This document shows positions 2,257 through 32,375 of a DNA stretch of 32,375 bases, in pieces. This DNA is from a virus. Lineage: Duplodnaviria > Caudoviricetes. The stretch is from IMG/VR virus record IMGVR_UViG_3300023283_000317, positions 1 to 32,375 of that record. One strand, given 5' to 3'. Under the pieces are notes generated by a model. That model did not search any database. It saw only the letters and a program-made list of their open reading frames with translations, and was not told the DNA's origin. How positions within the stretch are numbered: position 1 is the stretch's first letter; each line of letters opens with the position of its first letter. The translations under genes and the position numbers were made by a program.

Positions 2257-2369
2257 GTGCCCCCGGAACCGGACCGGCCCCAGAGTCTCGAAGGCAAGGA
2301 CGCCAGCGGGTCACCCAGGCGCTGGGGGGCCGGTTGATGACGGATGACCGCAGCTACTGGAGACCTGCG

Positions 2370-2672
2370 ATGACCACCGACGTGTATCGCATCACGATCG
2401 ACCGCGCCGCGAAGGTCAGCGAAGCAGAGCAGACGCTGCACCTGGCCATCCTCGCGGCGGAAGGTCTGTTCGGCGAAGCACAGGTTCGCATGGACATGGC
2501 CTACCACGTCGATGAGCCGCGCCAGGCGTTGATCATCGATGGCTCGACCGCCGTGGGTCGCGCCGTGCTCCGCATGTTCATCGCGCTGCTGCTTCACGAA
2601 ATCGGCCGCGAGGCCTTCACCGTTCGGCGCGTTCCACAGATTCATCGTTCACCGCTGGGGAGGGCCGCATGA
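2370..2672 (+). CDS. Hypothetical phage protein (100 aa)
   Basis: GGAG RBS before ATG 2370; stop overlaps next start (ATGA). Confidence 0.7.
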   Translation: MTTDVYRITIDRAAKVSEAEQTLHLAILAAEGLFGEAQVRMDMAYHVDEPRQALIIDGSTAVGRAVLRMFIALLLHEIGREAFTVRRVPQIHRSPLGRAA

Positions 2673-3844
2673 ACGGGTCGCGCGATGACATCCCGCTCGT
2701 GCGACTCGGCCAAGGCGACTACGCCCGCGACATCTACCCCTGCCTCGCCCCCGGATTTGGCCCGCGGAACACCAACCCCACCACGACGCCCATGAACACC
2801 ACGACTTCCATGACACCTGGAACCAACCGCGACGTTCTGACCTACTCGGCGCTGAACTGTTTCCGCAACTGCCCGCGGAAGTACAAGCTGCGCTACATCG
2901 ATCAACTCAGGCGTCCCGAACGGCCCGATGCCCTCGCCTTCGGCAGCGTCATTCACGCTGCGCTCGAGCAGTGGTATCGCACCGTCGATGACGAACGCCG
3001 ACTCCTGAAGGTGCTCGACGTGATCGATGACCATTTCCCCGGCCGGGCCAACGATCCCGATCACAAGTCCCGCTGGCATCTGGCGCGGGCCATGTTCGAG
3101 GGCTACGCCCGGCGCTACCCGACCGAGGACTTCGAGATCGTCGAGATCGAGAAGGAATTCACTGCAGAGATTCGCAACCCGGACACCGGCCGACCCAGCC
3201 AGACGTTCATCATCGCCGGCAAGGCCGACGGGATCGTGCAACAGGATGGCGAGCTGTATCTGCTCGAGCACAAGACCGCTTCGGCGATCACTTCCGACTA
3301 CCTCGACCGTCTGTGGACCGACACACAGATCGCGCTGTACTGCCACTACCTGCGGGAGCTCGGTTATCCGATCGTCGGCGTGATCTACAACGTCTTGCTC
3401 AAGACCCGCCTCAAGCAGCGCGAAGGCGAGACGCTGGAAGAGTACGAGGCTCGGCGCGCGGCGCTGGCTGCGAAGAACAAATCGGGCCGCTCGACTGCGA
3501 AGCGCCAACAGCCGGAGACCGACGAGGATTTTCGGGCTCGGCTGGCTGACTGGTACACGCAGCCCGGCGCTTTTCATCGTGAGCGCATTTACCTGTCGGC
3601 CGATCGCATGGCCATGCTGCAGGAAGAGGTCTGGGAGATCACGCAGCAGTATCTCGACGCGCGCCGCCGGGGCAAGTGGCTGCTCAACACTTCCAGCTGC
3701 TTCAGCTTTCAGCGGGCCTGCGACTACCTGCCGTTGTGCCAGTCGGGTTTCAGCCCCAACGTGCGAGACAACCTCTACGAGGTGGTGCCACCGCACGAGG
3801 AACTGGCGGAGCTGACCGTCGGCGCGACTGATGGTGACTTCTGA
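2669..3844 (+). CDS. PD-(D/E)XK nuclease, Cas4/AddB-like (start may be 2792 or 2810)
   Basis: TYSALNCFRNCPRKY, FGSVIH, GKADG...LEHKT, QIALY and three C-terminal Cys, consistent with an Fe-S staple. Confidence 0.88.
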   Translation: MNGSRDDIPLVRLGQGDYARDIYPCLAPGFGPRNTNPTTTPMNTTTSMTPGTNRDVLTYSALNCFRNCPRKYKLRYIDQLRRPERPDALAFGSVIHAALEQWYRTVDDERRLLKVLDVIDDHFPGRANDPDHKSRWHLARAMFEGYARRYPTEDFEIVEIEKEFTAEIRNPDTGRPSQTFIIAGKADGIVQQDGELYLLEHKTASAITSDYLDRLWTDTQIALYCHYLRELGYPIVGVIYNVLLKTRLKQREGETLEEYEARRAALAAKNKSGRSTAKRQQPETDEDFRARLADWYTQPGAFHRERIYLSADRMAMLQEEVWEITQQYLDARRRGKWLLNTSSCFSFQRACDYLPLCQSGFSPNVRDNLYEVVPPHEELAELTVGATDGDF

Positions 3845-3874
3845 CCCACGCCCAACGCCCATGGAGACCACGAC

Positions 3875-4648
3875 ATGACCGTCTGCCTGCCTGCGAACAA
3901 GTCCACGCCCACCACCGACCTGTCGACGAAGACCACGCTGATCTACGGGCCGCCGAAGATCGGCAAGTCGAGCTTCGCCGCCCGGTTCCCCGACGCCCTG
4001 TTCTTCGAATGCGAGCCGGGCCTCGGCGAACTGTCGGTCTACAAGGTGCCTACCTACAGCTGGGCTGATTTGCTCGAAGCGTGCAAGCTGGTCGCGGCCG
4101 GAAATCACCAGTTCAAGACCGTGGTGATCGACACCGTCGATAACGCCTTCAAGTTCTGCACCGACCACGTCAACGCCAAGCACAACGTCGAATACGAGGG
4201 CGACCTCGATCACGGCAAAGGGTGGGCGTTCGTCAAAAACGAATGGCACCGGGTGCTGACGCGCCTGGCCAGCCTGCCGGTGGGCCTGGTGTTGATCAGC
4301 CACGCGACCGACAAGCAGATCGAAACCCGTACCGGCAAGTACAGCAAGACCCAGCCGTCGCTGCCCGACCGCGCGCGCCATGTTGTGTTGGGTCTGGTGG
4401 ACATGATCCTGTACTGCGACACCACCTCCCGCCCCAAGGCCTCCGGTTCCGGGGGCGGCAAGGGCAGCGAGATCGTTCGCATCATCCGCACCAAACCCCA
4501 TCCGACCTACGAGGCGGGCGATCGCACGGGCCGGCTCCCCGAAGTGATGTCGCTCGAATTCGCCGCCTTCGCCAGCCACTTCGCTGGGCCGGCCACGCCC
4601 GCCGGCGCTCGTCCCGCCGCACAACCACAACCCTCCAGCAAGGAGTAA
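3875..4648 (+). CDS. Sak4-like (AAA_24) recombination ATPase
   Basis: Walker A YGPPKIGKS, Walker B VVIDT, LISH; lies between exonuclease and SSB genes. Confidence 0.85.
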   Translation: MTVCLPANKSTPTTDLSTKTTLIYGPPKIGKSSFAARFPDALFFECEPGLGELSVYKVPTYSWADLLEACKLVAAGNHQFKTVVIDTVDNAFKFCTDHVNAKHNVEYEGDLDHGKGWAFVKNEWHRVLTRLASLPVGLVLISHATDKQIETRTGKYSKTQPSLPDRARHVVLGLVDMILYCDTTSRPKASGSGGGKGSEIVRIIRTKPHPTYEAGDRTGRLPEVMSLEFAAFASHFAGPATPAGARPAAQPQPSSKE

Positions 4649-4654
4649 CCGGCC

Positions 4655-5254: not shown

Positions 5255-5315
5255 ATCATGCATCTCTCCGACGCTTGCTCGGTCGGTTCCCGTTCGAGTC
5301 AACGTCAGTCGTGGG

Positions 5316-5369
5316 GCCGCCCCTGGCCTCGCCCGGCATTCTGGGTCCGGGGTCAGGGGACGGCTTTTT
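5316..5369 (+). terminator. Long GC-rich hairpin plus T5 (terminator or attenuator)
   Basis: GCCG/CGGC, CCCCTGGCCTCG/CGGGGTCAGGGG (with G-U) and CCCGG/CTGGG stems, CATT loop, then TTTTT. Confidence 0.6.
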
Positions 5370-5383
5370 CACCAGGAGTCTCC

Positions 5384-5848: not shown

Positions 5849-8004
5849 GCCAGACGATCCACGGCACGGTCGTGAAGACCTACTACAGCGACGCGCAGTT
5901 CTCGGCCGGCGTGATCGCTACCGACGACGGCACGCAAGTTCGGTTCCGCGGGCGGCTGTATGCCGCCGAAGGCGATCGGCTGTCGGCGATCGGCCAGTGG
6001 ACGGTTGACCCGAAGTACGGCCATCAATTTGAGATCAAACAGCTCGACTATGAACTGCCCCAGACCCGGGAGGGGCTGATCAACTACTTATCCAAGCACC
6101 CGGCCTTCGTCGGGGTCGGACAGAAGAGCGCCGAGCGGATCGTGGACGTGCTCGCGGACGGCGAAGAACTCGGCGAGGCGCTGCGCAGTCGATTCGACGA
6201 CTTCGTCGCCGCCGGCGTGCCGCGCAAGACGCTTGAGGCCTTGGCGAGTTCGTGGGACCAACATGCCGGCGAGAACGCCGTCCGCTCGTACCTCGCCGGC
6301 TTCGGCCTGACTCCACACCAGATGCAGACGCTGCTGGAGAAGTTCGGCACCAGCATCGTCTCAATGCTCAAGCACGACCCGTACCTACTGATCAAACATC
6401 TGTCGGGCTACGGTTTCAAGAAGGTCGACCAGATCGCCCTGAAACTCGGCGTCGCCAAGACGCATCCGGGCCGGATCGAAGCGGCGCTGTCTTACTGCGT
6501 CTCGCAGCAGATCAGCAACGGTCACACCTGGACACCCGGCAGCGAGCTGGTCACGCAGGCGAACGATGCGTTGGTGATCGACACGCTGGACAGCCGCGAT
6601 CTGATCCAAGCGGCAGGCAACCGGCTGATCGCCAACGGTGACCTGGTCGCCGACGGCTGCGCCGTCACATTGCCGTGGCTGCACCGCAATGAGCAGTTGA
6701 TCGAAGCGGCCTTCCGGCGCGCGGCGCGAACAGACGACGAGACACCCGACGTGTCAACCCGTCGTCCCGAAGACGATCTCAGCGATGATCAGCGTGAGGC
6801 ATTCCACACGGCGATCACCAATCGCATCTCCGTCATCTCCGGCGGCGCGGGCACCGGCAAGACCTACGTGGTGGCCCGATTGGCCCGTCGCTTTCAGGAG
6901 GCCGGGCTGGTTGTCAGTCTCGCCGCCCCAACGGGCAAAGCCGCCAAGCGCATCGAACAACTGCTGCGCGCCCATGGCGTTGACCTGTCCGCGTCCACGA
7001 TCCATCGCCTGCTGGGCTACAACGGCATCGAGTACCGCGAAGACATCCTGCCCGCGGACGTGGTCATCATCGACGAGGTGTCGATGGTCGACGTGCCGCT
7101 CATGGCCGAGTTGCTACGCCATATCGATCTCGACCGCACCCGCCTGATCCTTGTCGGCGACCACAACCAACTGCCGCCGGTCGGGCCCGGCAACGTGCTG
7201 CGCGACTTGATCCAGCACAACCTGGTGCCTGCCACCGTGATGACGAAGGTCCACCGCCAGGCCGGCGTGCTGAAGACCAACAGCGTGGGCGTCTTGAAGG
7301 GACAACTGGCACCGAGCGCCACGGATGATCAGTCGCGGTGGGTGGTGGTCAACCGTTTCCGCGATGCTCAGGCCATCAAGCATTGGCTGCGTGACCTGGT
7401 CCTGACGGACATCCCGAAGCGGTACGGTTTTGATCCCGTCCATGACGTTCAGATCATCACGCCCGAGCACCGCGGGCCGCTGGGCACACGGTCGCTCAAC
7501 CAGATGATGCAGTACCTGCTCCCCCGGAAACGTCCCCAAGCCCGGAATGGCGACGTGCCGAGCGACAGCAAACCGGGTCGCCTACTTCCGGGAGACAAGG
7601 TGATTCAGACACGGAACGACTACGAGCTGGGCGTGATGAACGGCACGATCGGTTTCGTGCAGGAGGTGGGCAAGAGCGGATTGGTGATCGACTTCGAAGG
7701 CAAGGACGACGTCGAGGTCGACTGGAACAAGGCCAAGTCGGTGGACCTGGCGTATGCCCTCACGGCGCACAAGGCCCAGGGCAGCGAGTTTCCCTGCGCC
7801 GTGGTTCTCTGTCACAAGTCACACTTCTTCGCCGATCGTAACTGGCTCTACACCGCCGTGACCCGCGCCGCGCACACCTGCGTGCTGGTCGGCGATGACT
7901 ACGGGCTGCGCCGAGCGGCCAGTCAGGTGCGCAACACCAAGCGCCGGACGTGGATGAGTCTTTGGGCATCGCGAGCGCGACAGTTGCAGGAGGCTGCGGC
8001 TTGA
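5845..8004 (+). CDS. recD2: RecD2-like SF1B DNA helicase
   Basis: N-terminal OB/HhH region, GGAGTGKT, IIDEVSM, VGDHNQLPPVG, YALTAHKAQGSEF, LYTAVTRA. Confidence 0.92.
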   Translation: MSQTIHGTVVKTYYSDAQFSAGVIATDDGTQVRFRGRLYAAEGDRLSAIGQWTVDPKYGHQFEIKQLDYELPQTREGLINYLSKHPAFVGVGQKSAERIVDVLADGEELGEALRSRFDDFVAAGVPRKTLEALASSWDQHAGENAVRSYLAGFGLTPHQMQTLLEKFGTSIVSMLKHDPYLLIKHLSGYGFKKVDQIALKLGVAKTHPGRIEAALSYCVSQQISNGHTWTPGSELVTQANDALVIDTLDSRDLIQAAGNRLIANGDLVADGCAVTLPWLHRNEQLIEAAFRRAARTDDETPDVSTRRPEDDLSDDQREAFHTAITNRISVISGGAGTGKTYVVARLARRFQEAGLVVSLAAPTGKAAKRIEQLLRAHGVDLSASTIHRLLGYNGIEYREDILPADVVIIDEVSMVDVPLMAELLRHIDLDRTRLILVGDHNQLPPVGPGNVLRDLIQHNLVPATVMTKVHRQAGVLKTNSVGVLKGQLAPSATDDQSRWVVVNRFRDAQAIKHWLRDLVLTDIPKRYGFDPVHDVQIITPEHRGPLGTRSLNQMMQYLLPRKRPQARNGDVPSDSKPGRLLPGDKVIQTRNDYELGVMNGTIGFVQEVGKSGLVIDFEGKDDVEVDWNKAKSVDLAYALTAHKAQGSEFPCAVVLCHKSHFFADRNWLYTAVTRAAHTCVLVGDDYGLRRAASQVRNTKRRTWMSLWASRARQLQEAAA

Positions 8005-10316: not shown

Positions 10317-10944
10317 CAGATCGGTGACAGATGGTGACGGATCGAAACCCCGATCTGTCACCCCTCAAGCCCCGGAACAAAAGCAGGTTACAAATCCGGT
10401 GACAGATGTGACAGATGCGCCCGGAAAGTCCCATACGCGTGCGCGCGCACACGCGCATGGGAAAGTTACTGAAAACAGCGTCACCATCTGTCATCTGTCA
10501 CCCGAACCCCCGGGAGCCTCCGAAGCCCCTGACGCCGACGCCAAACGCTACGCCATGTGCGACCACGACGACCCGGCGAAGCCGGTCTACAGGCCAGAGG
10601 ACGACGTCTTGGAATTCAAACGATCGGTTCGGTTCGCGGCCATCGACGTGATGATCCTGACCTACGCCGCCCGCCGCCATGCCGAGTGGCTCAGCGAGAT
10701 CGGCGTCTGCCCACCGGATATCGCCAAGCTGATCCGCCAAGACTTGGCATACATAACCAGTGTCCTGGAGCGCGAGCGCCAGGATGTAGCGGCGGCAATG
10801 CCCGCTTCCGCGGGCTTGGGCGACGTTGGCCCACGTTCGCGAGAAGACGTCCGGGCGACCACGCCTACGCCCACACTCTTCGACGCGACACGTGGCGACG
10901 TGGGCCAAACGGAGCCGAGCGAGGTCATAACCGGGAAGGCTTAG
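10303..10944 (+). CDS. Hypothetical protein overlapping the repeat region (doubtful N-terminus)
   Basis: GGAGG RBS and open frame, but the N-terminal VTD repeats simply translate the DNA repeats. Confidence 0.4.
   Translation: MGTGDRSVTDGDGSKPRSVTPQAPEQKQVTNPVTDVTDAPGKSHTRARAHAHGKVTENSVTICHLSPEPPGASEAPDADAKRYAMCDHDDPAKPVYRPEDDVLEFKRSVRFAAIDVMILTYAARRHAEWLSEIGVCPPDIAKLIRQDLAYITSVLERERQDVAAAMPASAGLGDVGPRSREDVRATTPTPTLFDATRGDVGQTEPSEVITGKA
10313..10501. repeat. GTGACAGAT direct and inverted repeats; putative replication origin
   Basis: Forward copies at 10313, 10324, 10334 (1 mismatch), 10387 (2 mismatches), 10399, 10408; reverse at 10353, 10486 (1 mismatch), 10493. Confidence 0.75.
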
Positions 10945-10991: not shown

Positions 10992-11036
10992 CTACGTGCT
11001 TTGAGTTGGTTGCAGATAAAAAAGCAAGAGGAATCC

Positions 11037-12717: not shown

Positions 12718-12723
12718 ATCGAT

Positions 12724-14394: not shown

Positions 14395-15123
14395 TCACGC
14401 TCCCTTCTTGCCGACGGCGCTGAGCGTGAAGCGACCGCGCTCGACCTTGATGAACCGGGCGTCGTCGCCCTTGTTCTGCGTCTCGCGCAGGATCGCCGAG
14501 TACAACGTGGCCCAAGGCGTGGCGGCTTCGCTCGACCAGAGCTTCTTCGCCGTGACCTGCTCGACGATCTGCTTGCAGTTCATCGGCTCGTCCGCCTCGG
14601 CCAGGACCTGCACGGCCGCGTCGATGAGGCTGAGCTTCTTCGGCTTCTTCTCTTTCGACGAGGCCTTCGCCTTCTTCTTGCCGCGCTTGGCGTCGGCGGC
14701 GCTCTCCGTCATGGCCCGCTCGCTGGCGGTCATGCCGTCGGCGCTGCTGGCCCGCTCGTTTCGGACGCGTGCGTTCTCCTGATCCGCCTTGTGCTTGGCG
14801 AGCAGCGCTTTGCGCTCGGCGGCGGTGAGCTTCTTCTTCGCCCGACTCGTCGGTACCTCAATGCCGTCGGCGAGGTTCCCGTTCTTGATGGCTTTCGCAG
14901 CCTTGGCGTCGCTGTTGTCGCGGTTGGCGGGTGTCGTGCTCGGGGCCTTCGCGGGGCCACGCAGCTTCTGGGCGCTTTTGATCCGAACCTTCCGGTTCGT
15001 CTTGAGGTTGGTCGCATCCCAGCCGCCGCCCCCGGAATGCTCCGCGTCGATGCGGACGGGCACGACCTTGTCCGTGATCTTGGCGCTGTAGACGCCGCCA
15101 ATCTTGACCTGCTGCTTCTTCAT
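14395..15123 (-). CDS. Lys-rich protein with C-terminal HARE-HTH-like winged helix
   Basis: SLIDAAVQVLAEADEPMNCKQIVE...TPWATLYSAILRE...F..VERGRF; AAGGAG RBS. Confidence 0.78.
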   Translation of the reverse strand: MKKQQVKIGGVYSAKITDKVVPVRIDAEHSGGGGWDATNLKTNRKVRIKSAQKLRGPAKAPSTTPANRDNSDAKAAKAIKNGNLADGIEVPTSRAKKKLTAAERKALLAKHKADQENARVRNERASSADGMTASERAMTESAADAKRGKKKAKASSKEKKPKKLSLIDAAVQVLAEADEPMNCKQIVEQVTAKKLWSSEAATPWATLYSAILRETQNKGDDARFIKVERGRFTLSAVGKKGA

Positions 15124-18436: not shown

Positions 18437-18877
18437 TCAATCGATGAACAGGTCGGGTCGAACGCGGAAGTGGTCAGCCAGCACGCGTAGGTGATCGACG
18501 GTCAGCGAGCGTTCACCGCGCAGAATCTTCGCCGCGTGGCTGCGATGCACGTTAAGCAGTCGGCCCAGATCGGCGGCGCTCATGCCGTGCTCGTCCATCA
18601 GTGAACGTAGCATCTCCAAACCACTGAACTGCCGCGTCTCCACAGCGTGGTGTACCGACTCGTATGCGTTGAGCAGCGTCGAAACCGAATCGAGGTAATC
18701 CTCTTGGTCATCGTTCAGATCGTGGCCGGCCATGGCGTCGATGATGTCAGTCACATTCTCCCGATCAACCTCATCATGGATTGGGCGCAGCGGGTAGAGA
18801 CCCAGCAGGCCATCCCAATTGGTCGGAATGTCGCCGATCGTCAGATGCTTACTGGTTCCGGGGGGTGTGTTGCTCAT
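18437..18877 (-). CDS. higA: HigA-type antitoxin (XRE HTH)
   Basis: LRSLMDEHGMSAADLGRLL...ILRGERSLTVDHLRVLADHF; ATGA overlap with the toxin stop. Confidence 0.88.
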   Translation of the reverse strand: MSNTPPGTSKHLTIGDIPTNWDGLLGLYPLRPIHDEVDRENVTDIIDAMAGHDLNDDQEDYLDSVSTLLNAYESVHHAVETRQFSGLEMLRSLMDEHGMSAADLGRLLNVHRSHAAKILRGERSLTVDHLRVLADHFRVRPDLFID

Positions 18878-19182
18878 AGTTCGTCCTTCCATCGATCTTT
18901 GTCGTAGTCCGCGTGGGTTAAGAAACGCAGGACGTAAACGTTGCCTCGGTTGTAGTGGATGGCGGTGATCAGGCGGTAGTTGCCGCCACCGATGTTGAAC
19001 ACAACCACCTTCCGGCCGCTGGCGACGGTCACGCCGTCGGCGTGCGGGAACGTGCGTCGCACGTCCACCAGGCTGCTCCATTCAGCCGAACGAGTCTTTG
19101 CCAGCCAGTCCTCCAGCGAGGGCTTGGCCCGACGATATCGGGTCCAATACTCGCGGATACGGGCGGGCTTGATCACGTTCAT
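18874..19182 (-). CDS. higB: HigB-type mRNA interferase toxin
   Basis: W..LVDVRRTFPHAD...VVFNIGGGNYRLI...LTHADYDKDRW. Confidence 0.92.
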   Translation of the reverse strand: MNVIKPARIREYWTRYRRAKPSLEDWLAKTRSAEWSSLVDVRRTFPHADGVTVASGRKVVVFNIGGGNYRLITAIHYNRGNVYVLRFLTHADYDKDRWKDEL

Positions 19183-21195: not shown

Positions 21196-23263
21196 CTACC
21201 TGACTTTTCGGTGCCCGCTAACGGTTGAGGCCGCGAGCGAACCGGATAGGAAGACGCCTCGCTTTCGCATGGTGGCCTACACCGGCGGTGTGATGCGGAT
21301 CACCGGCTTCCCGCACCCGGTGGTGGTCGACCTTGAAGGATTGGCCATCGATCGCCAGGACATCCCGGTCCGCCTCGATCACAACCCGCGCCAAGGCGTA
21401 GGCCACACGCAGCGCGTGTTGATTGAGAACGGCCAGGTCGTCGCCGAGGGCCTGGTCAGCCGCGACACTTCATGGGCGCGCGACGTGGCCAAGTCGGCGA
21501 CCAACGGCTTTCCCTGGCAGGCGAGCATCGGCGCTGCAGTGGTTGAAGCCGAGTTCATTCCCAACGGCCAGCAGGTGACCGTCAACGGCAGAACGTTCAA
21601 CGGCCCGCTGCATGTGGTGCGTGGGGCCATCCTCAAAGAGATTTCGTTCGTCGACAGCGGTGCCGATACCGCCACGTCGGCGCGCATCGCTGCTCAACAC
21701 AAGGAACAAGAAGTCATGGACGACAAGAACACGAGCACCTCAGACGACGCCCAGCAGATTGCGGAGGCGACCGATGCGAACGCCACCCCAAGCAACGACA
21801 CCGACACCCAGCCGAAAGCGGACAAGACGCCCAAGTCGGCCACGCAGAAACCGCAAGCCTCGCCTGCCCCGACCGGAAACGCGGGCAACCCGACCACGTT
21901 CAACGCCTCCGTCCCCATCTCATCCGAGGATGATGCGGTAACCAAAATGCGTCAGCGCATCGCGGCCGAAACCCGGCGCGTCGAGGCGATCCAGAAACTG
22001 TGCGCCCCCGGAAATGGCAAGCACGCCGACATCGAGGCCAAGGCCATCGAGGAAGGCTGGGACGTGACCAAGACCGAGCTTCACATCCTGCGCGCCTCGC
22101 GCCCGCAGGTGCCCGCAACGACCGCCTCGCGCCCGGGCAACGCGAACTTCCGGGGGCCGCAGATGTTCGAGGCCGTGGCGCTGATGGCGTCGGGCCTGCC
22201 CAACTCGCGCATCGAGGCGCTGTACGACGAGCCGGTGCTCGAAGCGGCCGACAAGCTGCGCGGTGTCGGCATCCAGGAGTTCTGCGAGCTGGCGTGCGGC
22301 CAGCAGCTGCCGCGATTCCGGCGCGACGCGACCGGTTGGCTGCAGGCGGCGTTCAGCACCGCTTCGCTGCCGGGCATCCTTTCCAACATCGCCAACAAGA
22401 TGCTGCTGGAGGGGTACAACTACATCGAGGACGCCTGGCGCAAGCTCGCCAAGATCGCCAGCGTCAACGACTTCAAGGAGCACAGCCGCTACCGCATGAC
22501 CGGCGCGTTCAAGTTCGAGCAGGTTAGCGCCGACGGCGAGCTCAAGCACGGCAAGCTCGATGAGCAGAAGTTCGGGCAGAAGGCCGACACGCACGGCATC
22601 ATGTTCGCGCTGACGCGCCAGATGATCATCAACGATGACATGGGTGCGTTCACGGACATTCCGCGCCAGATCGGCATGGGCGCTGCCGAGTCGATCGCCG
22701 ACGCGGTGTGGGAACTGTGGCTCAAGAACCCCGTGCAGTCCGACGGCAAGACGTTCTTCCACGCCGATCACGGCAACTACGCCGAGGGTGCGGACACGGC
22801 GCTGAGCGTCGACGGTCTGACCGATGCCGAGATTCTGTTCGGTGAGCAGACCAAGCCCAACGGCCGGCCGCTGGGCATCCCGGCCAGCATCCTGCTGGTG
22901 CCCACGGCGCTGAAGGTGCCAGCGGCGCAGCTGATGAACTCGATGCAGCTGAATGAGACGACCACGGCGAACAAGCCCAAGCCGGTGAACAACCCGCACG
23001 TGGGCAAGTTCGATGTCGTCTCCAGCGTGTACCTGTCCAACGCCAGCTTCACCGGTGCTTCGAGCAAGGCGTGGTATCTGCTGGCCGACCCGAACCGCCT
23101 GCCTGCGATCGAGATCGCCTTCCTCAACGGCGTCGATCGGCCCACCGTCGAGAAGACCGACGCGGACTTCAACACGCTGGGCGTGCAGTTCCGCGGCTAT
23201 ATCGACTTCGGCGTCCGCGAGCAGGACCACCGTGGTGCTTTGAAGATGAAGGGCGAAGCGTAA
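21161..23263 (+). CDS. Prohead protease-scaffold-major capsid fusion
   Basis: Protease-like RLDHN...WQASIG...LKEISFV..GAD, low-complexity linker, capsid-like C-terminus (IINDDMGAF...DFGVREQDHRG); GAGGAG RBS before 21161. Confidence 0.87.
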   Translation: MSNPATHDKQPDYLTFRCPLTVEAASEPDRKTPRFRMVAYTGGVMRITGFPHPVVVDLEGLAIDRQDIPVRLDHNPRQGVGHTQRVLIENGQVVAEGLVSRDTSWARDVAKSATNGFPWQASIGAAVVEAEFIPNGQQVTVNGRTFNGPLHVVRGAILKEISFVDSGADTATSARIAAQHKEQEVMDDKNTSTSDDAQQIAEATDANATPSNDTDTQPKADKTPKSATQKPQASPAPTGNAGNPTTFNASVPISSEDDAVTKMRQRIAAETRRVEAIQKLCAPGNGKHADIEAKAIEEGWDVTKTELHILRASRPQVPATTASRPGNANFRGPQMFEAVALMASGLPNSRIEALYDEPVLEAADKLRGVGIQEFCELACGQQLPRFRRDATGWLQAAFSTASLPGILSNIANKMLLEGYNYIEDAWRKLAKIASVNDFKEHSRYRMTGAFKFEQVSADGELKHGKLDEQKFGQKADTHGIMFALTRQMIINDDMGAFTDIPRQIGMGAAESIADAVWELWLKNPVQSDGKTFFHADHGNYAEGADTALSVDGLTDAEILFGEQTKPNGRPLGIPASILLVPTALKVPAAQLMNSMQLNETTTANKPKPVNNPHVGKFDVVSSVYLSNASFTGASSKAWYLLADPNRLPAIEIAFLNGVDRPTVEKTDADFNTLGVQFRGYIDFGVREQDHRGALKMKGEA

Positions 23264-23324: not shown

Positions 23325-23678
23325 ATGACGGCACGATTCATTCATGACGGCGACGCCATCGACTACACCCCCGCCCCCGGAAGTGACGTCACCGCCGGCG
23401 ATGTGGTGGTCCAGGAGGATCTGGTCGGCGTGGCCAAACTCGACATCCCAGCCGACACGCTCGGCGCACTGCACGTGACCGGCGTGTTCGACTTCCCCAA
23501 GGCGACTGGCAGCGGCCAGTCGATCCCCGCCGGTGTGAAGGTGTACTGGGACGACGTCGCCAAACAGGCGTTCGCGGCAGGCGGTGGTTCCAGTTCGGGC
23601 GGTGAGAAGCTGCTCGGTAAGTCCGTCCTCGCCGCCAGTGAAAGTGACGAGACGGTGCGCGTGCGCCTGACGCAGTGA
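23325..23678 (+). CDS. DUF2190 capsid decoration/cement protein
   Basis: GDAIDYTP...VGVAKLDI...GVFDFPK...VYWD...VRVRL; directly after the capsid gene. Confidence 0.85.
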   Translation: MTARFIHDGDAIDYTPAPGSDVTAGDVVVQEDLVGVAKLDIPADTLGALHVTGVFDFPKATGSGQSIPAGVKVYWDDVAKQAFAAGGGSSSGGEKLLGKSVLAASESDETVRVRLTQ

Positions 23679-24181: not shown

Positions 24182-24185
24182 CCGC

Positions 24186-24422: not shown

Positions 24423-24425
24423 TTC

Positions 24426-24863
24426 ATGAGCCTGGTCATTGACATCGCCGACGCCCTCGCCGCCGAACTTAACGTGGCCGCGCCGGGCACTTTCAGCCAA
24501 CCGTTCACGGCCGAGCGGCAGGTGTTGCCCATCTTCGAGCTGGCCGACCTGGCGGAACTGAAGGTGACCGTCGTGCCCCGGTCGGTGCAGATCACCGGCA
24601 GCACACGCGCCACCAGCCAGTATGAGATCGCCATCGACGTCGGCGTGCAGAAGCGCGTCGGCAAACAGGTGGACGACGACGTGGAGGCGCTGAGCACGCT
24701 GGTGGACGAGATCACTGACTACTTGCGCCGGCGGACGCTTCAGGAAGTTCCGGGGGCGGCGTGGGTGTCGATCGACAACGAGCCGGTCTACGCCCGCGAG
24801 CACCTGGCCGAACAGCGTGTGTTCACCAGCGTCCTGACCGTGACCTACCGAGCGTTGAAATGA
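24426..24863 (+). CDS. Putative tail terminator/completion protein
   Basis: Position and size; C-terminal beta strand VFTSVLTVTYR; GGAGG RBS. Confidence 0.6.
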   Translation: MSLVIDIADALAAELNVAAPGTFSQPFTAERQVLPIFELADLAELKVTVVPRSVQITGSTRATSQYEIAIDVGVQKRVGKQVDDDVEALSTLVDEITDYLRRRTLQEVPGAAWVSIDNEPVYAREHLAEQRVFTSVLTVTYRALK

Positions 24864-24884
24864 CCCCGTGCGGATGCGAACAGC

Positions 24885-25313
24885 ATGTTCGGCTTCGAGA
24901 TCACCAAGCTGTTCTTCGACAAGAAGGCGGTCACGAGCAGGACCGACCGCACGACGCGACGTGTGCTCAGCCGGTTCGGCGCGTTCGTGCGGCGCACGGC
25001 GCGGCAGAGCATCCGCAAGCGCAAGAAGCCCGCGCCGCCCGGCAAGCCGCCGAGCAGCCACATCGGTCTGCTGAAGAAGTTCATCTTCTTCGGCTACGAC
25101 CCCCGCCCCCGGAAGCGATCGGTGGTCATCGGGCCGGTGCAACTCACGCAGAAGGGACGGGGTGAAGCGCCGGCCCTGCTCGAGCACGGCGGAATGGGTA
25201 AGGCCGGCAAGAAACGCGTCCGGTACAGACCACGGCCGTTCATGGTTCCCGCGTTCGAGAAGGAACAACCGAAGCTGCCCGCCATGTGGCGCGACAGCGT
25301 CCCCCGGAAGTAG
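24885..25313 (+). CDS. Basic neck/tail completion protein (HK97 gp10-like)
   Basis: Arg/Lys-rich; PGKPPSSHIGLLKK, LEHGG, RPFMVPA. Confidence 0.7.
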   Translation: MFGFEITKLFFDKKAVTSRTDRTTRRVLSRFGAFVRRTARQSIRKRKKPAPPGKPPSSHIGLLKKFIFFGYDPRPRKRSVVIGPVQLTQKGRGEAPALLEHGGMGKAGKKRVRYRPRPFMVPAFEKEQPKLPAMWRDSVPRK

Positions 25314-25334
25314 GCATAGCAAGGAGGCACGACG

Positions 25335-25772: not shown

Positions 25773-25852
25773 GCCCCCGCCCCCGGAAATCTTGGAAGCA
25801 GTGACCACACACGCATCCTTATAGAAGGACGCATCATAGAAGGACACATCCC

Positions 25853-26350
25853 ATGAAGACATTCAACGACGCGGGCGGGCGCACCTGGTCGATCACGCTG
25901 ACACTCGGCACCGCCATGCACGTCAAGACCAAGCTGGGCATCGACCTGCTCCAGCCGGAATCAGGTGACGATTCCGGGGGGCCGCCGTTGCTGACGCGAT
26001 TGGGCACCGACGAGATGCTGCTGGGCGAGGTGCTCTGCGCCATGCTCGAATCACAGTTCGAGAAGAACAACGTCAGCGCCGAGGACGTCCAGGCGTCGTT
26101 CGACGGCCAGACGCTGCTGGCGGCGCAGAAGGCGTTCTACGAGGAGATGATCGATTTTTTCCGCTCGCGCGGCCGCAACGATCGGGCCAAGGCGGTCGCC
26201 AAGCAGATGGCCATGATCGACGCCGCAATCGAAGCGATCGAGACGCGCATCGACGGGATCGACATCGACAAGACGATCGCTGGGGTGATGTCTGGCGAAT
26301 CGCCGGAAGCCTCGGACTCGGTCCCGGCGATTCCGGGATCGGCGGGCTGA
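25853..26350 (+). CDS. Tail assembly chaperone (putative)
   Basis: Follows the tail tube gene; helical acidic protein. Confidence 0.65.
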   Translation: MKTFNDAGGRTWSITLTLGTAMHVKTKLGIDLLQPESGDDSGGPPLLTRLGTDEMLLGEVLCAMLESQFEKNNVSAEDVQASFDGQTLLAAQKAFYEEMIDFFRSRGRNDRAKAVAKQMAMIDAAIEAIETRIDGIDIDKTIAGVMSGESPEASDSVPAIPGSAG

Positions 26351-26370
26351 CGCTGCGGCAACTGCTGTGG

Positions 26371-26604: not shown

Positions 26605-26606
26605 CC

Positions 26607-26984: not shown

Positions 26985-27006
26985 CCCCATGGGAAGGACC
27001 CCACGC

Positions 27007-27372: not shown

Positions 27373-27565
27373 AATCCTCGCACTCGTCCAAGCCGCCCGG
27401 TCGCTTCTCGAACTGGGCATCTCGCAGTACCGCCTCGCCGAGCAGGAGGGGCGGCTCACCGACGAACAGAAGGCGGCGATCCTCGCCGCCGCCGAACTCA
27501 CCGACGACCAGGTGGACGCCGTCGTCGCCGCCGCCCGTCAGCGTCTTTCGCATCCGCCCTCTTGA
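27359..27565 (+). CDS. Small amphipathic helical protein
   Basis: GGAGG RBS; overlaps the lipoprotein stop. Confidence 0.65.
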   Translation: MTPVEILALVQAARSLLELGISQYRLAEQEGRLTDEQKAAILAAAELTDDQVDAVVAAARQRLSHPPS

Positions 27566-27636
27566 TGAGCAACGGAATGTGTTGTGTGCATGTGCACCGC
27601 GAAAACATGGCCAAATCAAACAGAGAGCCAATGACT

Positions 27637-28152
27637 TCAGCGTATCTTCAACATCTTCTTGAATTTCTTCTCGGCGGCATTGGGCTTGCCAGGTGTCGAG
27701 CGAATCACACCTTTGATCGTCCATTGCGGGATGCTCTTGGTGCTCTGTACGTTGCAGAGGTCTGGATTTCGATTTACGGCGAACTGAATGAGTTCCTTCT
27801 CCATGTGATTCAGTTCTGCGGCCGGAACCTTGCGCCTGTTATCGAACGGGGCCACGAAGAACAACACTGGCGTGCCCTTATGTCCGCGAAAGAGGGCATC
27901 GTTGTAGTGGTTCAGTTTGTGCGAAGTGAACGTCTCTTGCTTGAATCCCTTGCTCGCTTTGCCCACGTACCAAGGTTTGAACCCCTTAGCTGCTCGCATG
28001 CCAAACACATAACAGCCTTGTTTCAGCTTGAGTGCTTCGACCTCAGGCTGCGCCCAAAAGCTGTTGCCGTGCTGTGCGGTGACGCGCTTAACCGCGCCGT
28101 TCTTGTCGAAGCCGATGTCGAACGGTCCATACACCCTGAGATCTGTAGCCAT
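27637..28152 (-). CDS. Stand-alone GIY-YIG-like nuclease (moron)
   Basis: GCYVF...WYVGKA, helix MEKELI, PDLCN; lower GC; opposite strand to neighbours. Confidence 0.72.
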   Translation of the reverse strand: MATDLRVYGPFDIGFDKNGAVKRVTAQHGNSFWAQPEVEALKLKQGCYVFGMRAAKGFKPWYVGKASKGFKQETFTSHKLNHYNDALFRGHKGTPVLFFVAPFDNRRKVPAAELNHMEKELIQFAVNRNPDLCNVQSTKSIPQWTIKGVIRSTPGKPNAAEKKFKKMLKIR

Positions 28153-28211
28153 GAGAATCGCCTTGCGTTGAGGACTCGATCGGACACGACAGATTAGACC
28201 GGATGGACTGA

Positions 28212-30224
28212 ATGGCATCAACACAAGGCATCCGAGCAGGCCGCGCGTTCGTCGAGCTGTTCGCCGACGACAGCAAGCTGGTGCGGGGACTCCGCGCCGC
28301 CGAGAAGAAGCTCAAGGCTTTCGGTCAGGGTATCCGCAACCTTGGCCTGAAGATCGTGGGCCTCGGCGCGGCGATCCTCGCACCGCTTGCCGCGTCGGCG
28401 AAGCTGTTCAGCGGCTACGGCGACCAGGTCGCCAAGATGGCCAAGCGCACCGGCCTGAGCGTAGAGACGCTCAGCGAACTGCGTTTCGTCGCGTCGCAGA
28501 CCGGCACGGAGTTCGAGTCGCTGGAGATGGCGTTCCGCAAGATGCAGCGATCGATCTTCGACGCCGGACGTGGGCTGTCGACGCAGACCGACGCGCTGGA
28601 TGAACTGGGCCTGAAGTTCGAGGACCTCGACGGCTTGTCGCCCGAGCAGCAGTTCAAGCTGCTGGCCGACCGGATCGGCAAGGTAGAGGACCCGACCAGG
28701 CGCGCGGCGATCGCCATGAGCCTGTTCGGCCGCACCGGCACCAACCTGCTGCCGATGTTCGCCGCCGGGGCCAAGGGCATCGAGCAACTGCAGGAAGAAG
28801 CCCGTCGGCTGGGACTGACCATGAGCAAGGAGGACGCCGAGGCGGCCGAGCAGTTCACCGACGCGCTCGATTCGCTGTGGAAGGTGATCAAGATGGGCGT
28901 GTTCAACGTGGGCGCTGCGCTCGCACCGGCGCTGCAGATGGTGGCCGAGAAGATCACGGCCGTCGCGATCAGGATCAGCGAATGGATCAAACAGAACCGC
29001 CAGGTCATCGTGACCGTGCTCAAGGTCGCGTCGATCGTCGTGGCCGCCGGCGTGGCGCTGGTCGTCCTGGGGACGATCATCTCCGGCCTCGGATCGGCCA
29101 TTGGTCTGTTGGTCACGGTCGTCACCACGATCGTGGGTGTGCTCAAACTCCTGGCGGCGGCGATCGCCTTCCTCGTCTCGCCCATCGGCCTGGTCATCGC
29201 AGCGTTCGCTGCGTTGGGTACGTTCATCCTCCAAGCCACCGGCGTGGGAGTCAGAGCGCTGGATTGGCTTGGCAAGCGTTTCAATGCGCTCAAGGACACG
29301 GCGCTGGCCGCGTGGCGCGGCATCGCCGACGCCTTGGCCGCCGGGGACATCGGCCTGGCGGCGAAGATTCTTTGGCTGACGCTCAAGCTCGCATGGCAGA
29401 CAGGCATCGACCAACTCAACCGTCTGTGGCTGGCATTCAAGACCGGGTTCCTCAAGATCGCCAGCGAGGCGTTCTTCGGCGCGGTCGCGGCATTGCAGAT
29501 CGCCACGCATGCGCTCGAAGTGGCATGGATCGAGACGACCGCGTTCCTCAGCAAAATCTGGACGAAATTCACAGCCGGATTCCAGAAGGCCTGGGGCAGC
29601 GCGGTGAACTGGACGGCCAAGCGGCTGCTCGAACTGCAGGGTCTCTTCGACGACACCTTTGACGTGGACCAGGCCAAGCGGCTGGCCGACCAGCAGAACG
29701 ACGCGGACAACCGGCGCATCGATCGTCAACGCGAGGCGGCGCTGGCGTCGCGCGAGCAACAACGCCAGCAGCAACGTGAACAGTCCGAGCAATTGCACGA
29801 AGCCACGCTGGCCCAGATCGGCAAGGAGGCGGACGAGCGTCTCAAAACGCTCGACGCCGAGGCCGAGGCCAAACGCAAGACGACCCAGGACGCGCTGAAC
29901 CAGGCGCGGGAGGAGTTCCAACAGGCGGTTGACGAAGCGCGACGGAAGCGCGAAGCCGCTGAATCAGTTGACGATCCTGATCGATTGGAAGGTTCCGGCG
30001 ACATCATTGAGAAGGCGCGTCGAGCGCTGGATGGACTTGGCGATGTGGTCGAGCAGGAGGCCGAGAAGATCGGCGTGCGCGGCACGTTCAACGCCGCCGC
30101 GATCCAGAGTCTGCAGTCCGGCGGGAAGACCGAAGAGCGGATCGCCAAGGCCGCCGAGGAGACCGCGAAGAACACGCGCCGCATCGAGCAGGCGATCAAC
30201 GACCACGCGATCGCCTTCGCATAA
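28212..30224 (+). CDS. Tape measure protein
   Basis: RAGRAFVELFAD start, KMAKRTGLSVETLSEL, LFGRTGTNLLPM, hydrophobic Ala/Gly core, coiled-coil C-terminus. Confidence 0.88.
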   Translation: MASTQGIRAGRAFVELFADDSKLVRGLRAAEKKLKAFGQGIRNLGLKIVGLGAAILAPLAASAKLFSGYGDQVAKMAKRTGLSVETLSELRFVASQTGTEFESLEMAFRKMQRSIFDAGRGLSTQTDALDELGLKFEDLDGLSPEQQFKLLADRIGKVEDPTRRAAIAMSLFGRTGTNLLPMFAAGAKGIEQLQEEARRLGLTMSKEDAEAAEQFTDALDSLWKVIKMGVFNVGAALAPALQMVAEKITAVAIRISEWIKQNRQVIVTVLKVASIVVAAGVALVVLGTIISGLGSAIGLLVTVVTTIVGVLKLLAAAIAFLVSPIGLVIAAFAALGTFILQATGVGVRALDWLGKRFNALKDTALAAWRGIADALAAGDIGLAAKILWLTLKLAWQTGIDQLNRLWLAFKTGFLKIASEAFFGAVAALQIATHALEVAWIETTAFLSKIWTKFTAGFQKAWGSAVNWTAKRLLELQGLFDDTFDVDQAKRLADQQNDADNRRIDRQREAALASREQQRQQQREQSEQLHEATLAQIGKEADERLKTLDAEAEAKRKTTQDALNQAREEFQQAVDEARRKREAAESVDDPDRLEGSGDIIEKARRALDGLGDVVEQEAEKIGVRGTFNAAAIQSLQSGGKTEERIAKAAEETAKNTRRIEQAINDHAIAFA

Positions 30225-30242
30225 GCACAGGGAAGTGCGTTC

Positions 30243-31043
30243 ATGGCAGTCACGGTTCAAGAGCGATACGGCAGGCGTCTCAGCGATGAAAGCGCTGAAC
30301 TGCTGTACCTCATCCGTGGCACGACCGACGATGCCACGGCACGCGCGGCGCTGCTTGGCAATTCGCCTGATTTCCACGACGGCCTTCCGCGCGACGACAC
30401 CGAGGTCGAGGAACTTGAAGGCCTCGACGCCTACCTCGGCACGGTGCGGTACGTCTCACCGGACGGGCAGCCGCCGGACACCGGTGAATCTTCGTTCTCG
30501 TTCGATACAACCGGCGGCACCCAGCACATCACCCAGTCGCTGAACACGGTGGGCACCTACGCCTCGCCCGCCATCCCCGCCGCTCCCGACTTCGGCGGCG
30601 CGATCGGCGTGACGCAGGACAACGTCGAGGGCGTGGACATCACCGTCCCGGTCTACTCGTTCTCCGAAACGCATTACATCCCCGCCGGCCAGGTGACCAA
30701 CGCCTACAAAGGCACGCTTTTCAATCTGACCGGCAAGGTCAACGACGGCGGCTTCCGCGGGCTGGCGGCCGGGGAGTGTCTGTTCCTCGGCGCGACGGGT
30801 TCGCGCCGCGAATCCGAGGACGACTGGGAGATCACGTTCCGCTTCGCCGGCAGTCCCAACAAAACGGGCCTGACGGTCGGTGACATCGCAGGCATCTCGA
30901 AGAAGGGCTGGGAGTACCTCTGGGTGCGCTACCAGGACACCGAAGACGACAACGCCAAGATGCTGATCAAGAAGCCCGTCGCGGCTTATGTCGAGCAGGT
31001 CTACGACGAAGGCAGCTTCGCGGCGCTGGGAATCGGAACGTAA
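30243..31043 (+). CDS. Putative distal tail/baseplate protein
   Basis: Directly after the tape measure gene; acidic, Gly/Thr-rich; KKGWEYLWVRY. Confidence 0.6.
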   Translation: MAVTVQERYGRRLSDESAELLYLIRGTTDDATARAALLGNSPDFHDGLPRDDTEVEELEGLDAYLGTVRYVSPDGQPPDTGESSFSFDTTGGTQHITQSLNTVGTYASPAIPAAPDFGGAIGVTQDNVEGVDITVPVYSFSETHYIPAGQVTNAYKGTLFNLTGKVNDGGFRGLAAGECLFLGATGSRRESEDDWEITFRFAGSPNKTGLTVGDIAGISKKGWEYLWVRYQDTEDDNAKMLIKKPVAAYVEQVYDEGSFAALGIGT

Positions 31044-31059
31044 CTCCCGGAATTGAACC

Positions 31060-32375
31060 ATGGGTGACGCCCTGAAGAAAGTCCAATCCGGCGACCCGCT
31101 GGTCATCCCGGCGGCGACGTTCAACGCGTTTGTCGACGCCGCGTTCGACTTCCGTCGCCGTCAGCGGGGCCTCGGCCGCGACAGCCAGGCGGTGTTCCGC
31201 CAGCTCGACATCATCCCCGTGCGCAACGACACGGGCGAAGACCTCGACCGGTTCAGCGCCGTCGGCATCGCCGCGCCGATCATCGGTCCCGATGTCAACG
31301 CCGACGAGTTCAAGAATCGCGCCACCGCGATCGGCGTCAAACCGATCGTGCCCGACCATCGCGGGCGCTTCGCGGTTTACCTTGAGCCGGTGAAGGACGG
31401 CAGGATCGCCCCGGCCTGCGTCAGCGGTGCCATTCCCTGCCGGATCAACGTCGAGGAAGAGACGCACCTGCGCGCCGACATCGAGCACGACGAAACGATC
31501 CTGCTGACCGGTCACCACGGCGGCGCTGAGATTCTCTGGAAGGAATCGGGCAAGGGCGTCAAGTGGGCGCTGGTCAAGGTGGGCATCGCCGAGCCGCTGG
31601 CGATCACGTTCGATGTGAAGCTCGTCAAGGCGGACGGTGAGCCGGGCGAGAACTGCGAGGAAGACTGCTCGTTCAAGTACGACATCTACGACATCCACAC
31701 CGGCGAGAAGCTCAGCGAAGACGACGAACCGCAGGAGCCGATCCAGTCGGACATCCGCCCGAAGAAGACGCAGATGATCGCCGCCACACGTGGCACGGCG
31801 TACTGGACGGTCAAGGAGGTCGACGGCAAACCCAAGATCGCCGTGCAATTGGAGGAGGCGTTCGAGGAACCGACGCCCCGCGCCCAGCAGTACGTCGTCA
31901 CCGGCATCACGTGCGACGACCCCGGAAGCGGCAGCGGGTCGGCCTCCGGGAACGGAGGCGGCGGCACGCTCGGCCACGGTAATTCCGGGGGCGACGACTG
32001 CTGCGACTTCACGCTCAAGTACCACACATCGAAGGTGTGCTACCCGCCCGGCGTGAAACTCGAAGACGGCCCGACCTACACCGTGCGCTGCGGCAGTTCA
32101 TCCAGCGGCTCATCGTCGGGATCGAGCTCCGAGTCGTCGGGCGGCTCGCCCAGTGGATCGGGCAGCCCGTCGGGGTCACCTTCATCCAGCGGCAGCCCGA
32201 GTTCGAGCAGTTCGGGTCCGCCGAGCAGTTCGAGCGGTAGTTCACAAGGATCGTCATCGCCCAGCAGCGGGCCGCCGCCATCCGGTAGTTCTGGACCACC
32301 TCAGTTACCGCCCCCGCCGAACGAGCCGGGGTATTACCAGCTCTGCGTCTGCTACGACGGCACGGTTCACTGGAC
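31060..32375 (+). CDS. Tail-associated protein with Cys-rich segments and a Ser/Gly/Pro linker (3' truncated; not in the ORF track)
   Basis: Open frame from ATG 31060 (MGDALKKVQSGDPLVIPAATFNAF...) to the window end with no stop. Confidence 0.75.
   Translation, partial: MGDALKKVQSGDPLVIPAATFNAFVDAAFDFRRRQRGLGRDSQAVFRQLDIIPVRNDTGEDLDRFSAVGIAAPIIGPDVNADEFKNRATAIGVKPIVPDHRGRFAVYLEPVKDGRIAPACVSGAIPCRINVEEETHLRADIEHDETILLTGHHGGAEILWKESGKGVKWALVKVGIAEPLAITFDVKLVKADGEPGENCEEDCSFKYDIYDIHTGEKLSEDDEPQEPIQSDIRPKKTQMIAATRGTAYWTVKEVDGKPKIAVQLEEAFEEPTPRAQQYVVTGITCDDPGSGSGSASGNGGGGTLGHGNSGGDDCCDFTLKYHTSKVCYPPGVKLEDGPTYTVRCGSSSSGSSSGSSSESSGGSPSGSGSPSGSPSSSGSPSSSSSGPPSSSSGSSQGSSSPSSGPPPSGSSGPPQLPPPPNEPGYYQLCVCYDGTVHW

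Follow-up and report, generated by a model that had tools for sequence, protein, structure and literature searches.

The window analysed here, a stretch of viral DNA of 32,375 nucleotides, contains the 9-mer CCCCCGGAA in 14 exact copies, eight on the plus strand and six on the minus strand. This raises the question of whether the motif is a device of the phage or a mark of its host, and of how its copies are made and kept. An earlier note, drawn up from the letters alone, placed all 14 copies and their strands correctly and was right that ten of them extend to GCCCCCGGAA and three read CCCCCGCCCCCGGAA (23374, 25106 and 25780); the three 8/9 matches it named (2748, 23680 and 24170) also exist, but are three of the 19 one-mismatch sites for CCCCCGGAA in the window. 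The extended consensus of the motif is purine-CCCCCGGAA-GT. The window itself is a lambda-like prophage, and its nearest named relatives lie in the Phycisphaeraceae.

Motif copies in the window

An order-0 estimate gives 0.71 expected copies, in keeping with the fewer than one proposed earlier from base composition, and Markov models of orders 2-4 give 0.15-0.30 against the 14 seen; the expectation at order 5, which is overfitted, is 1.58, and CCCCCGGAA ranks first among the 9-mers of the window at orders 2-5. All copies but the intergenic one at 25780 are coding, and synonymous-codon resampling of 28 window genes yielded a mean of 0.8 and a maximum of 5 copies in 1,000 resamplings, compared with the 13 coding copies seen. 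The enrichment stands under both the k-mer and the codon-shuffle checks that the earlier note had proposed. A codon or peptide cause is ruled out by the resampling and by the copies of the host genome G054, which use all six frames; that note had argued the same from peptides (ASGSGGG, LLPRKR and others) that are indeed present in the translations.

Homologs cover 12 of the 14 sites. No spanning homolog was found for the copies at 2260..2268 (plus strand), near the N-terminus of a hypothetical ORF (2235-2672), and at 18856..18864 (minus), at the N-terminus of a HigA-like antitoxin gene, and two to five homologs each are available at 4447, 7521, 25780 and 31983. The claim that a DNA-level, frame-independent signal favours loop insertions is borne out by the homolog alignments, which show extra bases in the window, relative to most homologs, at 22005, 23374, 25106, 25972, 22148, 25301 and 15029. 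In the protease-capsid gene, the copy at 22005..22013 (plus) lies in a three-codon insertion (CAPGNG versus CxG) that makes the window nine bases longer than 131 of 142 homologs, and the copy at 22148..22156 (minus; NFRGP) lies inside a three-codon insertion that adds nine bases relative to the two closest homologs; most homologs are shorter than the window both here and at 25301..25309 (plus), at the 3' end of the neck/tail-completion gene. CCCCCG stands upstream of the copies at 23374..23382 (plus; head cement gene, TPAPGS), 25106..25114 (plus; neck/tail-completion gene, DPRPRK) and 25780..25788 (plus; intergenic, after the major tail gene): the first is six bases longer than 114 of 123 homologs and is common to five other phages, third codon positions being kept, the second is six bases longer than 50 of 52, and the third is also present in three of five. 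The copy at 25972..25980 (minus) lies in a four-codon insertion (DSGGPP) in the gene at 25853-26350, 12 bases longer than 30 of 33 homologs, and that at 15029..15037 (plus), in the HARE-HTH gene (14395-15123, minus; HSGGGG), is three bases longer than 18 of 22, the related locus L051 having a one-mismatch copy at this site. At 31983..31991 (minus), in a low-complexity part of the last tail ORF, the window is nine bases longer than L051, and at 7521..7529 (plus), in the RecD2-like helicase gene (LLPRKR), one related prophage without the motif is shorter. The copy at 4447..4455 (minus), in the Sak4-like AAA_24 gene (ASGSGGG), is also found in one of two homologs, and that at 24748..24756 (minus), in the gene at 24426-24863 (EVPGA), is a same-length multi-base replacement, the length being equal in 68 of 75 homologs.

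Distribution in host chromosomes and prophages

The motif is a genome-wide mark of one planctomycete family, the Phycisphaeraceae, and no phage device. It is borne by 38 of 201 Phycisphaerales genomes, with up to 2,129 copies per genome and at least 500 in ten of them, and its enrichment is 30-100 fold. Host copies sit in housekeeping genes on both strands; in G054, the densest host (0.63 per kb) and the sole genome of its genus, 69 of 86 copies fall within ORFs, coding cover being 84%. Density varies about 100-fold within the one family, and sister genomes differ strongly (85 per Mb in G099, 6 per Mb in G138); the rpoC tree was built by a fast method and the support of its root split is only 60. 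Two motif carriers, ZRK34 and syqfu, have complete genome records. Among the origins listed in the earlier note the host mark is the right one, the chromosomes of the host branch being full of the motif. Its proposition that equal density across the host genome would point away from a phage system held in part: the richest chromosomes match or exceed the window (4.6-6.3 against 4.3 copies per 10 kb), these being chromosomes of relatives only. The motif is also non-polar, as had been claimed, with both orientations in use and no replichore polarity found among the matches listed (the first 100 sites of longer sub-patterns) on two complete chromosomes, where the best split was 0.58 and 0.60 versus 0.59 when shuffled and the sites in G003 reach to 4.6 of 7.4 Mb.

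Related prophages carry the motif in motif-bearing hosts and essentially lack it in other named hosts. In four hosts the prophages are 3-28 fold richer in the motif than the host itself, which would favour a phage-encoded system in which the prophage's ParB-MTase, HARE-HTH protein or primase would use the motif as its site. Such a system is nevertheless extremely improbable and already largely refuted, given the host chromosomes with up to 2,129 copies, a capsid tree on which the motif-rich label takes 10 changes (at least six of them forced), and a window primase (AEP) domain that matched one of 36 genomes or records. The two proteins favoured in the earlier note fail likewise, their genes being common in motif-poor relatives: among relatives' loci of at least 10 kb, homologs of the ParB-MTase and HARE-HTH occur in 33 and 35 of 51 motif-poor loci versus 20 and 21 of 27 motif-rich ones. 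No methylase link to the motif was found, and the phage ParB-MTase, the one examined, does not track it.

Gain and retention of copies

New copies come from insertions made in a single step or from the replacement of several bases, and the junction is sharp at the first C and ragged past the last A. In phages, 121 of 194 motif sites lie in single-step insertions, usually in-frame, as against 24 of 409 controls. Of the 167 coding copies, 106 meet alignment columns made up mostly of gaps (3.4% background), and phage pairs whose flanks are at least 93% identical differ by clean 9-base inserts. Nine of 25 motif copies in host aconitase lie in insertions or gapped loops, and loops grow longer in host and phage proteins alike as the motif is gained. 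With symmetrical flank filters on both sides, 27 of 51 events leave the old sequence unbroken as far as the first C, and just three do so as far as the last A; with generous ends the asymmetry is 30 versus 10 (P=2e-4), events in related phages being not fully independent. The base preceding the sharp junction is a target-derived purine in 22 of the 27 events, and the bases added after GGAA often differ from the GT consensus. A CCCCCG stutter lies upstream of 27 of 268 host copies versus 0.3 expected, irregular head-to-tail arrays in G159 give 237 overlapping triple matches (control 0), and motif pairs within 40 bp across 20 host stretches are direct in 21 cases and inverted in two. The phase of the tandem arrays is 26 versus 6 at the first C, but 12 versus 12 once consensus bases are left out. 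No conserved sequence was found past GT(T) at motif copies, and a transposon-end remnant was set aside since conservation stops there.

Copies, once present, resist synonymous drift. In 715 kb from seven hosts, with the G003 and G058 stretches chosen around known motif matches, there are 270 perfect copies versus 6 expected, and 94 words with one mismatch at positions 3-6 versus 98.5 expected. Where an insertion is shared, synonymous identity stands at 0.90, compared with 0.65 in the flanks, and is the higher of the two at 17 of 19 sites, which agrees with the earlier proposal of a loop-favouring signal selected at the DNA level; the shared insertions could instead reflect recent recombination or repeat events. 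In G054 the motif encodes 66 of 134 compatible peptides (4 expected), and at two conserved APG[ST] sites of host aconitase it is used in 7 of 52 copies (0.38 expected). Decay is greater in phages, with 296 perfect and 323 one-mismatch copies (98 expected), than in hosts, with 86 and 81 (74 expected) in G054. Two results count against the explanation preferred below: FRGY, the only ancestral phage site that synonymous changes could by themselves turn into the motif, has it in just 1 of 33 rich phages and in 1 of 52 poor ones, and in 10 rich hosts the motif occurs at none of nine compatible RpoC sites.

Known systems and candidate mechanisms

In density and exactness the motif resembles the uptake sequences of Neisseria and Haemophilus, but it fails three of their features. 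Like USS (Pasteurellaceae) and DUS (Neisseriaceae), it is a non-palindromic 9-10-mer in both orientations with a weak flanking consensus, present in hundreds to thousands of exact copies (at least 500 in 10 of 201 genomes) and placed in permissive parts of core proteins; one-mismatch copies are few, and perfect copies exceed the excess of one-mismatch copies in hosts and more weakly in phages. Its density of up to 0.63 per kb stands beside 0.80 for USS and 0.89 for DUS in the accessible text of PMC2817400. Their sequences are unrelated to the motif, however, and belong to another phylum. USS and DUS arise without length change, gap-free alignments making up 131 of 140 and 86 of 91 in that same text, whereas the motif came in insertions at the 121 phage sites; they frequently form inverted intergenic pairs, whereas the motif forms direct tandem arrays; and they are depleted in accessory DNA, being absent from recently acquired genes (PMC2397512), whereas the motif is richer in the prophages of four hosts. 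Both the insertion-borne copies and the 21 direct over two inverted close pairs count against an uptake-sequence reading. Many new DUS differ too much from the sequence they replaced to have come from point mutation, and the creation of uptake sequences from nothing is given as an open question (PMC2397512). HIP1 of cyanobacteria, for which the accessible part of PMC13756078 proposes a role in gene transfer, is likewise a lineage-wide iterated short word. It is, however, an 8-base palindrome read by methylases, whereas the motif is asymmetric. REP/RAYT elements and telomerase-like repeat addition provide enzyme-made, dispersed short repeats and irregular head-to-tail arrays; REP/RAYT differ as intergenic hairpins flanking a Y1 transposase, the motif being without a hairpin, mostly coding and not clustered at Y1 genes, and for telomerase-like addition a shared reverse transcriptase was not found (RVT_1 in two of five rich genomes). 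SPDIR in Acinetobacter baylyi, in which ectopic single strands act as Okazaki primers and leave microindels (accessible text of bioRxiv 2024.07.02.601687), shares one-step insertions and clustered replacements from such strands, but the patches described there are highly variable and the motif is one recurring word with a fixed start.

It is very probable that the motif is a host signal, written in one step and then retained, and likely that it is both recognised and copied by a putative host DNA-uptake or repair system. Uptake combined with patching is the mechanism tentatively preferred: a putative host DNA-uptake protein would read the motif and favour DNA carrying it, probably yielding single-stranded fragments that start at the first C, and these motif-ended strands would be patched into new sites. 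The prophage itself acquired the host signal largely through short one-step insertions. ComEC (53 of 54 genomes) and DprA (40 of 40) do not discriminate, since they are equally present in motif-free genomes.

Other mechanisms predict parts of the same record. A dedicated templated writer, in which a telomerase-like or protein-templated polymerase would extend free purine-ended 3' ends with CCCCCGGAA(GT), restart and so leave arrays and CCCCCG stutters behind, and rewrite decayed copies with or without a fitness benefit, would account for the purine before the sharp junction, the stutter, the G159 arrays and the contrast between G099 and G138. It is unlikely: RVT_1 turned up in only two of five rich genomes (four of the five incomplete) and Ku, with no relation to motif density, in 5 of 48, and the AEP families PF01896 and PF09250 were matched in none and three of five genomes (all incomplete). 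Most genomes in the searches for candidate enzymes are incomplete, so that a gene not found may still be present. The bases after GGAA are often other than GT, and the array phase is null. A Chi-like stop, equally unlikely, would have an AddAB-type resection nuclease halt at TTCCGGGGG-3', which would protect the DNA and leave 3' termini placed precisely at the run of Gs, some of them to be joined into breaks. This predicts the same sharp junction, and all of 36 genomes have a PD-(D/E)XK family match; many have it in a pair of neighbouring ORFs (about 950 and 1,100 aa), the arrangement that AddAB would show. The family is near-universal, however, and occurs in motif-free genomes too. Chi (RecBCD/AddAB) is also G-rich on one strand and non-palindromic, and according to the accessible text of PMC3784561 it can be enriched in temperate phages, selection in phages without RecBCD inhibitors being similar to or stronger than in hosts, in line with the prophages that exceed their own hosts in motif density; Vibrio has non-polar Chi candidates (bioRxiv 2020.08.13.249359, accessible part). 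Chi enrichment is, however, about 2-3 fold in that text of PMC3784561, far below the motif's. The leading-strand polarity of Chi is absent here among the matches listed on two chromosomes, and we know of no case of Chi arising by insertion.

A self-copying site of priming or nicking, at which a host primase or nickase would act at the first C and release short strands that seed insertions and tandem duplications, would fit the fixed start with a purine ahead, the variable downstream extras and the frequent direct tandem copies. It is distinctly unlikely, as the DnaG of rich hosts looks ordinary over the first 330 alignment columns (DnaG itself being near-universal, as are ComEC and DprA), no shared AEP was found, and array phase is null. 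Y1 transposases occur in five of five genomes searched, with no motif-free genome among them, and 27 Y1 loci are flanked at background level (34 copies in 81 kb, or 4.2 per 10 kb, about the genome level). The motif could also be bound by a protein that organises the nucleoid or packages DNA, the latter perhaps in a gene-transfer-agent-like particle, with chance templated events as the sole source of the insertions, and its conservation profile does resemble that of a binding site. This reading is very improbable: words one mismatch away are plentiful (about 4.6 per 10 kb in G054), so that selection by itself should work through point mutations, whereas phage gains are mostly insertions sharp at one edge.

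No description of the motif was found in the literature, in a search that left most subscription papers outside its reach. To our knowledge, few bacterial lineages have a short word this dense (USS, DUS and HIP1), and none is planctomycete. For this motif, comparing close phage pairs shows the creation events directly, and their fixed edge points to specific chemistry; given the roughly 100-fold range of density within one family, whole-proteome profiling could find the gene. It is possible, if doubtful, that the Phycisphaeraceae encode a putative enzyme system that writes one fixed word of 9-11 bases into DNA ends across chromosomes and prophages, together with a reader that retains it, and the likening of such a writer to a telomerase at internal breaks or to a self-copying priming site is just as tentative. 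If this is true, the system would have inserted peptides into core and phage proteins genome-wide.

The motif in the window and in related prophages

PHROGs and Pfam identify the window as a lambda-like prophage that carries a sigma factor, a PD-(D/E)XK exonuclease, a Sak4-like protein, SSB, an ERCC4 nuclease, RecD2 and a primase-helicase, together with ParB-methyltransferase, HARE-HTH, terminase, portal, protease-capsid, cement, tail and tape measure genes. Insertions among the phage modules comprise a DDE transposase fragment (3-458), a Fic gene (12724-13881), a HigBA pair (18437-19182) and an unannotated 195-aa gene on the reverse strand (27637-28224); in sequencing run X3 one contig joins across 27543-28219. 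By language-model features, the N-terminal part of the primase-helicase (8007-8960) is similar to AEP-TOTE primases; a prophage in G020 has it too (80%), and a search of 35 further genomes or records found it in none. ATCTGTCAC has six window copies against 0.2 expected; at least some of them, at about 10370-10510, lie directly past the primase gene, and they are possibly iterons of the phage's origin.

A coordinate recount bore out the 14 exact copies of the 9-mer described in the earlier note, with their strands and extensions, against a Markov expectation of 0.15-0.30 (orders 2-4). The motif ranks first among window 9-mers at orders 2-5, and 13 coding copies compare with a mean of 0.8 and a maximum of 5 over 1,000 rounds of codon resampling. 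The one-mismatch variant GCCCGCGGAA has five window copies (2760, 2871, 5944, 10806 and 30753; about 0.2 expected), an excess that is weak in related phages and shows no rise in hosts.

Among 159 related loci (the best 79 of 110 and the best 80 of 293 confirmed stretches), the motif frequently heads the 9-mers in loci of Phycisphaeraceae-labelled genomes, ZRK34, syqfu and UBA7800, reaching 46 copies in 19 kb; loci from Anaerohalosphaeraceae, Thermoguttaceae, Planctomycetaceae and other Phycisphaerae have 0-1 copies. Locus L023, itself Phycisphaeraceae-labelled, is without copies, and its genome sits with the motif-free rows on the rpoC tree. On a capsid tree of 79 rows, 28 of them motif-rich, the label needs 10 changes, at least six being forced by well-supported branches. 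On these sequence comparisons, motif presence in related prophages follows the host. The earlier suggestion of a site for the ParB-methyltransferase or HARE-HTH protein is not supported: of 51 motif-poor loci, 33 have a homolog of the former and 35 of the latter. A phage-encoded system is highly improbable. Capsid relatives are up to 79-86% identical, the closest named among the matches listed being Phycisphaera sp. RI_212. The window's assembly consists of the window alone and host comparisons rest on relatives' hosts; wherever both are comparable, prophages are denser in the motif than the chromosome (copies per 10 kb: ZRK34, 4.5 versus 0.36; RI_212, 2.6-4.5 versus 0.16; syqfu, 2.3-10.9 versus 0.79; UBA7800, 3.2 versus 0.50).

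Origin of new copies

Of 303 distinct phage sites, the 194 with at least two usable homologs were compared for length, and 121 were at least 3 bases longer than their homologs, with modes of 9, 12 and 6 extra bases, against 24 of 409 random controls. Codon alignments show 106 of 167 copies overlapping columns that are mostly gap, against a background of 3.4% of residues; for the capsid alone the figures are 24 of 65 against 1.9%. Several exact 9-base inserts separate phage pairs with flanks at least 93% identical, and thus stepwise change cannot be their source. Among 35 same-length pairs scored, nine have mismatches at four or more bases of the motif and 11 at a single base. Under symmetric filters, 27 of 51 events leave the ancestral sequence intact up to the first C and three leave it intact up to the last A (30 versus 10 junctions with consensus extensions allowed). 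In 22 of 27 events the base preceding the sharp junction is a purine derived from the target; junction and insertion events come partly from related phages and are less than fully independent. Of 25 host aconitase copies, nine lie in gapped loops, nine alter the peptide and seven arise by synonymous choice.

The motif in host chromosomes

Enrichment (100 or more copies, and five times as many as the reversed-pattern control) is found in 38 of 201 genomes of the order, 10 having at least 500 copies; the denominator includes the unpublished G103, on which no other claim rests. The top hosts are G054 (2,129 copies in 3.4 Mb), G159 (1,643) and G141 (1,422). A count of the 11-mer CCCCCGGAAGT in 251 genomes of the phylum singles out G020, G001 and G016, all of this order; the 11-mer is weakly raised in two unplaced genomes, G420 (27 versus 4) and G447 (17 versus 4), which fall outside the order's genome sample. 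On a fast-method rpoC tree of 26 rows, the genomes that carry the motif fall into two well-supported clades. Six rows stand apart from these, five of them lacking the motif and one uncounted, at a root split support of 60; density within the two clades runs from 6 to 626 per Mb.

Among 53 proteins picked for carrying the motif are enolase, aconitase, Rho, GlyRS, RuvB, IspE and NuoG; in none of the five richest sampled genomes was a copy found within the rpoC ORF. Host copies occupy all six reading frames, and no replichore polarity was seen in host chromosomes. With its flanking bases, the consensus reads purine-CCCCCGGAA-GT, often with CCCCCG directly upstream. Hosts carry irregular head-to-tail arrays, and nearby pairs are direct, not inverted. 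A triple array (G105:C2:3801511-3801555) lies between two halves of a DprA match in one open 435-aa frame. DnaG and aconitase of four hosts (G162, locus L380; G105, L374; G054, L392; G186, L301) contain other in-frame low-complexity inserts, such as NPKSEIRNP, which suggests that core proteins are also taking up another family of short tandem repeats.

Retention, mechanism and known signals

Any mechanism must cover two steps, one-step writing with a fixed edge and then retention. Seven hosts together, over 715 kb, have 270 perfect copies (6 expected); one-mismatch words are at background at positions 3-6 (94 versus 98.5) and in excess at the end positions (239 versus 109). Neutral scars at steady state would be expected to give roughly equal numbers of one-mismatch and perfect copies. 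At shared phage insertions third-position identity is 0.90, the flanks having 0.65, and is the higher of the two at 17 of 19 sites; at gap-free phage sites the values are 0.66 and 0.57 (11 of 18). In G054 the motif encodes 66 of 134 compatible peptides (4 expected). Two findings argue against strong selection for gain in phages: the conserved FRGY site, reachable by synonymous change, uses the motif in one rich phage of 33 and one poor phage of 52, and the decay halo around the motif is larger in phages than in hosts. Retention could also be due to rewriting or recent recombination.

What the motif does, and by which enzyme, we infer. To our knowledge, no process other than biased uptake brings a non-palindromic 9-mer to such a density with no polarity. 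Given this fit, and given that SPDIR is an established path from stray single strands to microindels (bioRxiv 2024.07.02.601687), the tentatively preferred reading is an uptake-type reader, a protein that would recognise the motif and also yield motif-ended fragments. Two alternatives are less likely, a Chi-like nuclease stop and a templated writer; each is doubtful. A self-copying priming or nicking site is less probable again, and a nucleoid or packaging site is quite improbable. None of the individually searched candidate genes (RVT_1, Ku, ComEC, DprA, AEP/primase families, Y1 transposases, DnaG and PD-(D/E)XK nuclease) follows motif density among genomes.

In density, exactness and symmetry the motif is like the uptake sequences DUS and USS. 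Nevertheless, it is not classed with them, because its copies mostly do not arise gap-free, its close pairs are mainly direct and not inverted, and accessory DNA is not poor in it. It differs from Chi in its want of polarity, and from HIP1 in not being a palindrome. These comparisons draw on PMC2817400, PMC1939737, PMC2397512, PMC3784561, bioRxiv 2020.08.13.249359, bioRxiv 2024.07.02.601687 and PMC13756078. No published account of the motif was found, as judged by titles and abstract openings in a literature incompletely covered. In summary, the motif is a real, family-wide iterated DNA signal, apparently undescribed, whose creation events can be read straight from the sequence.
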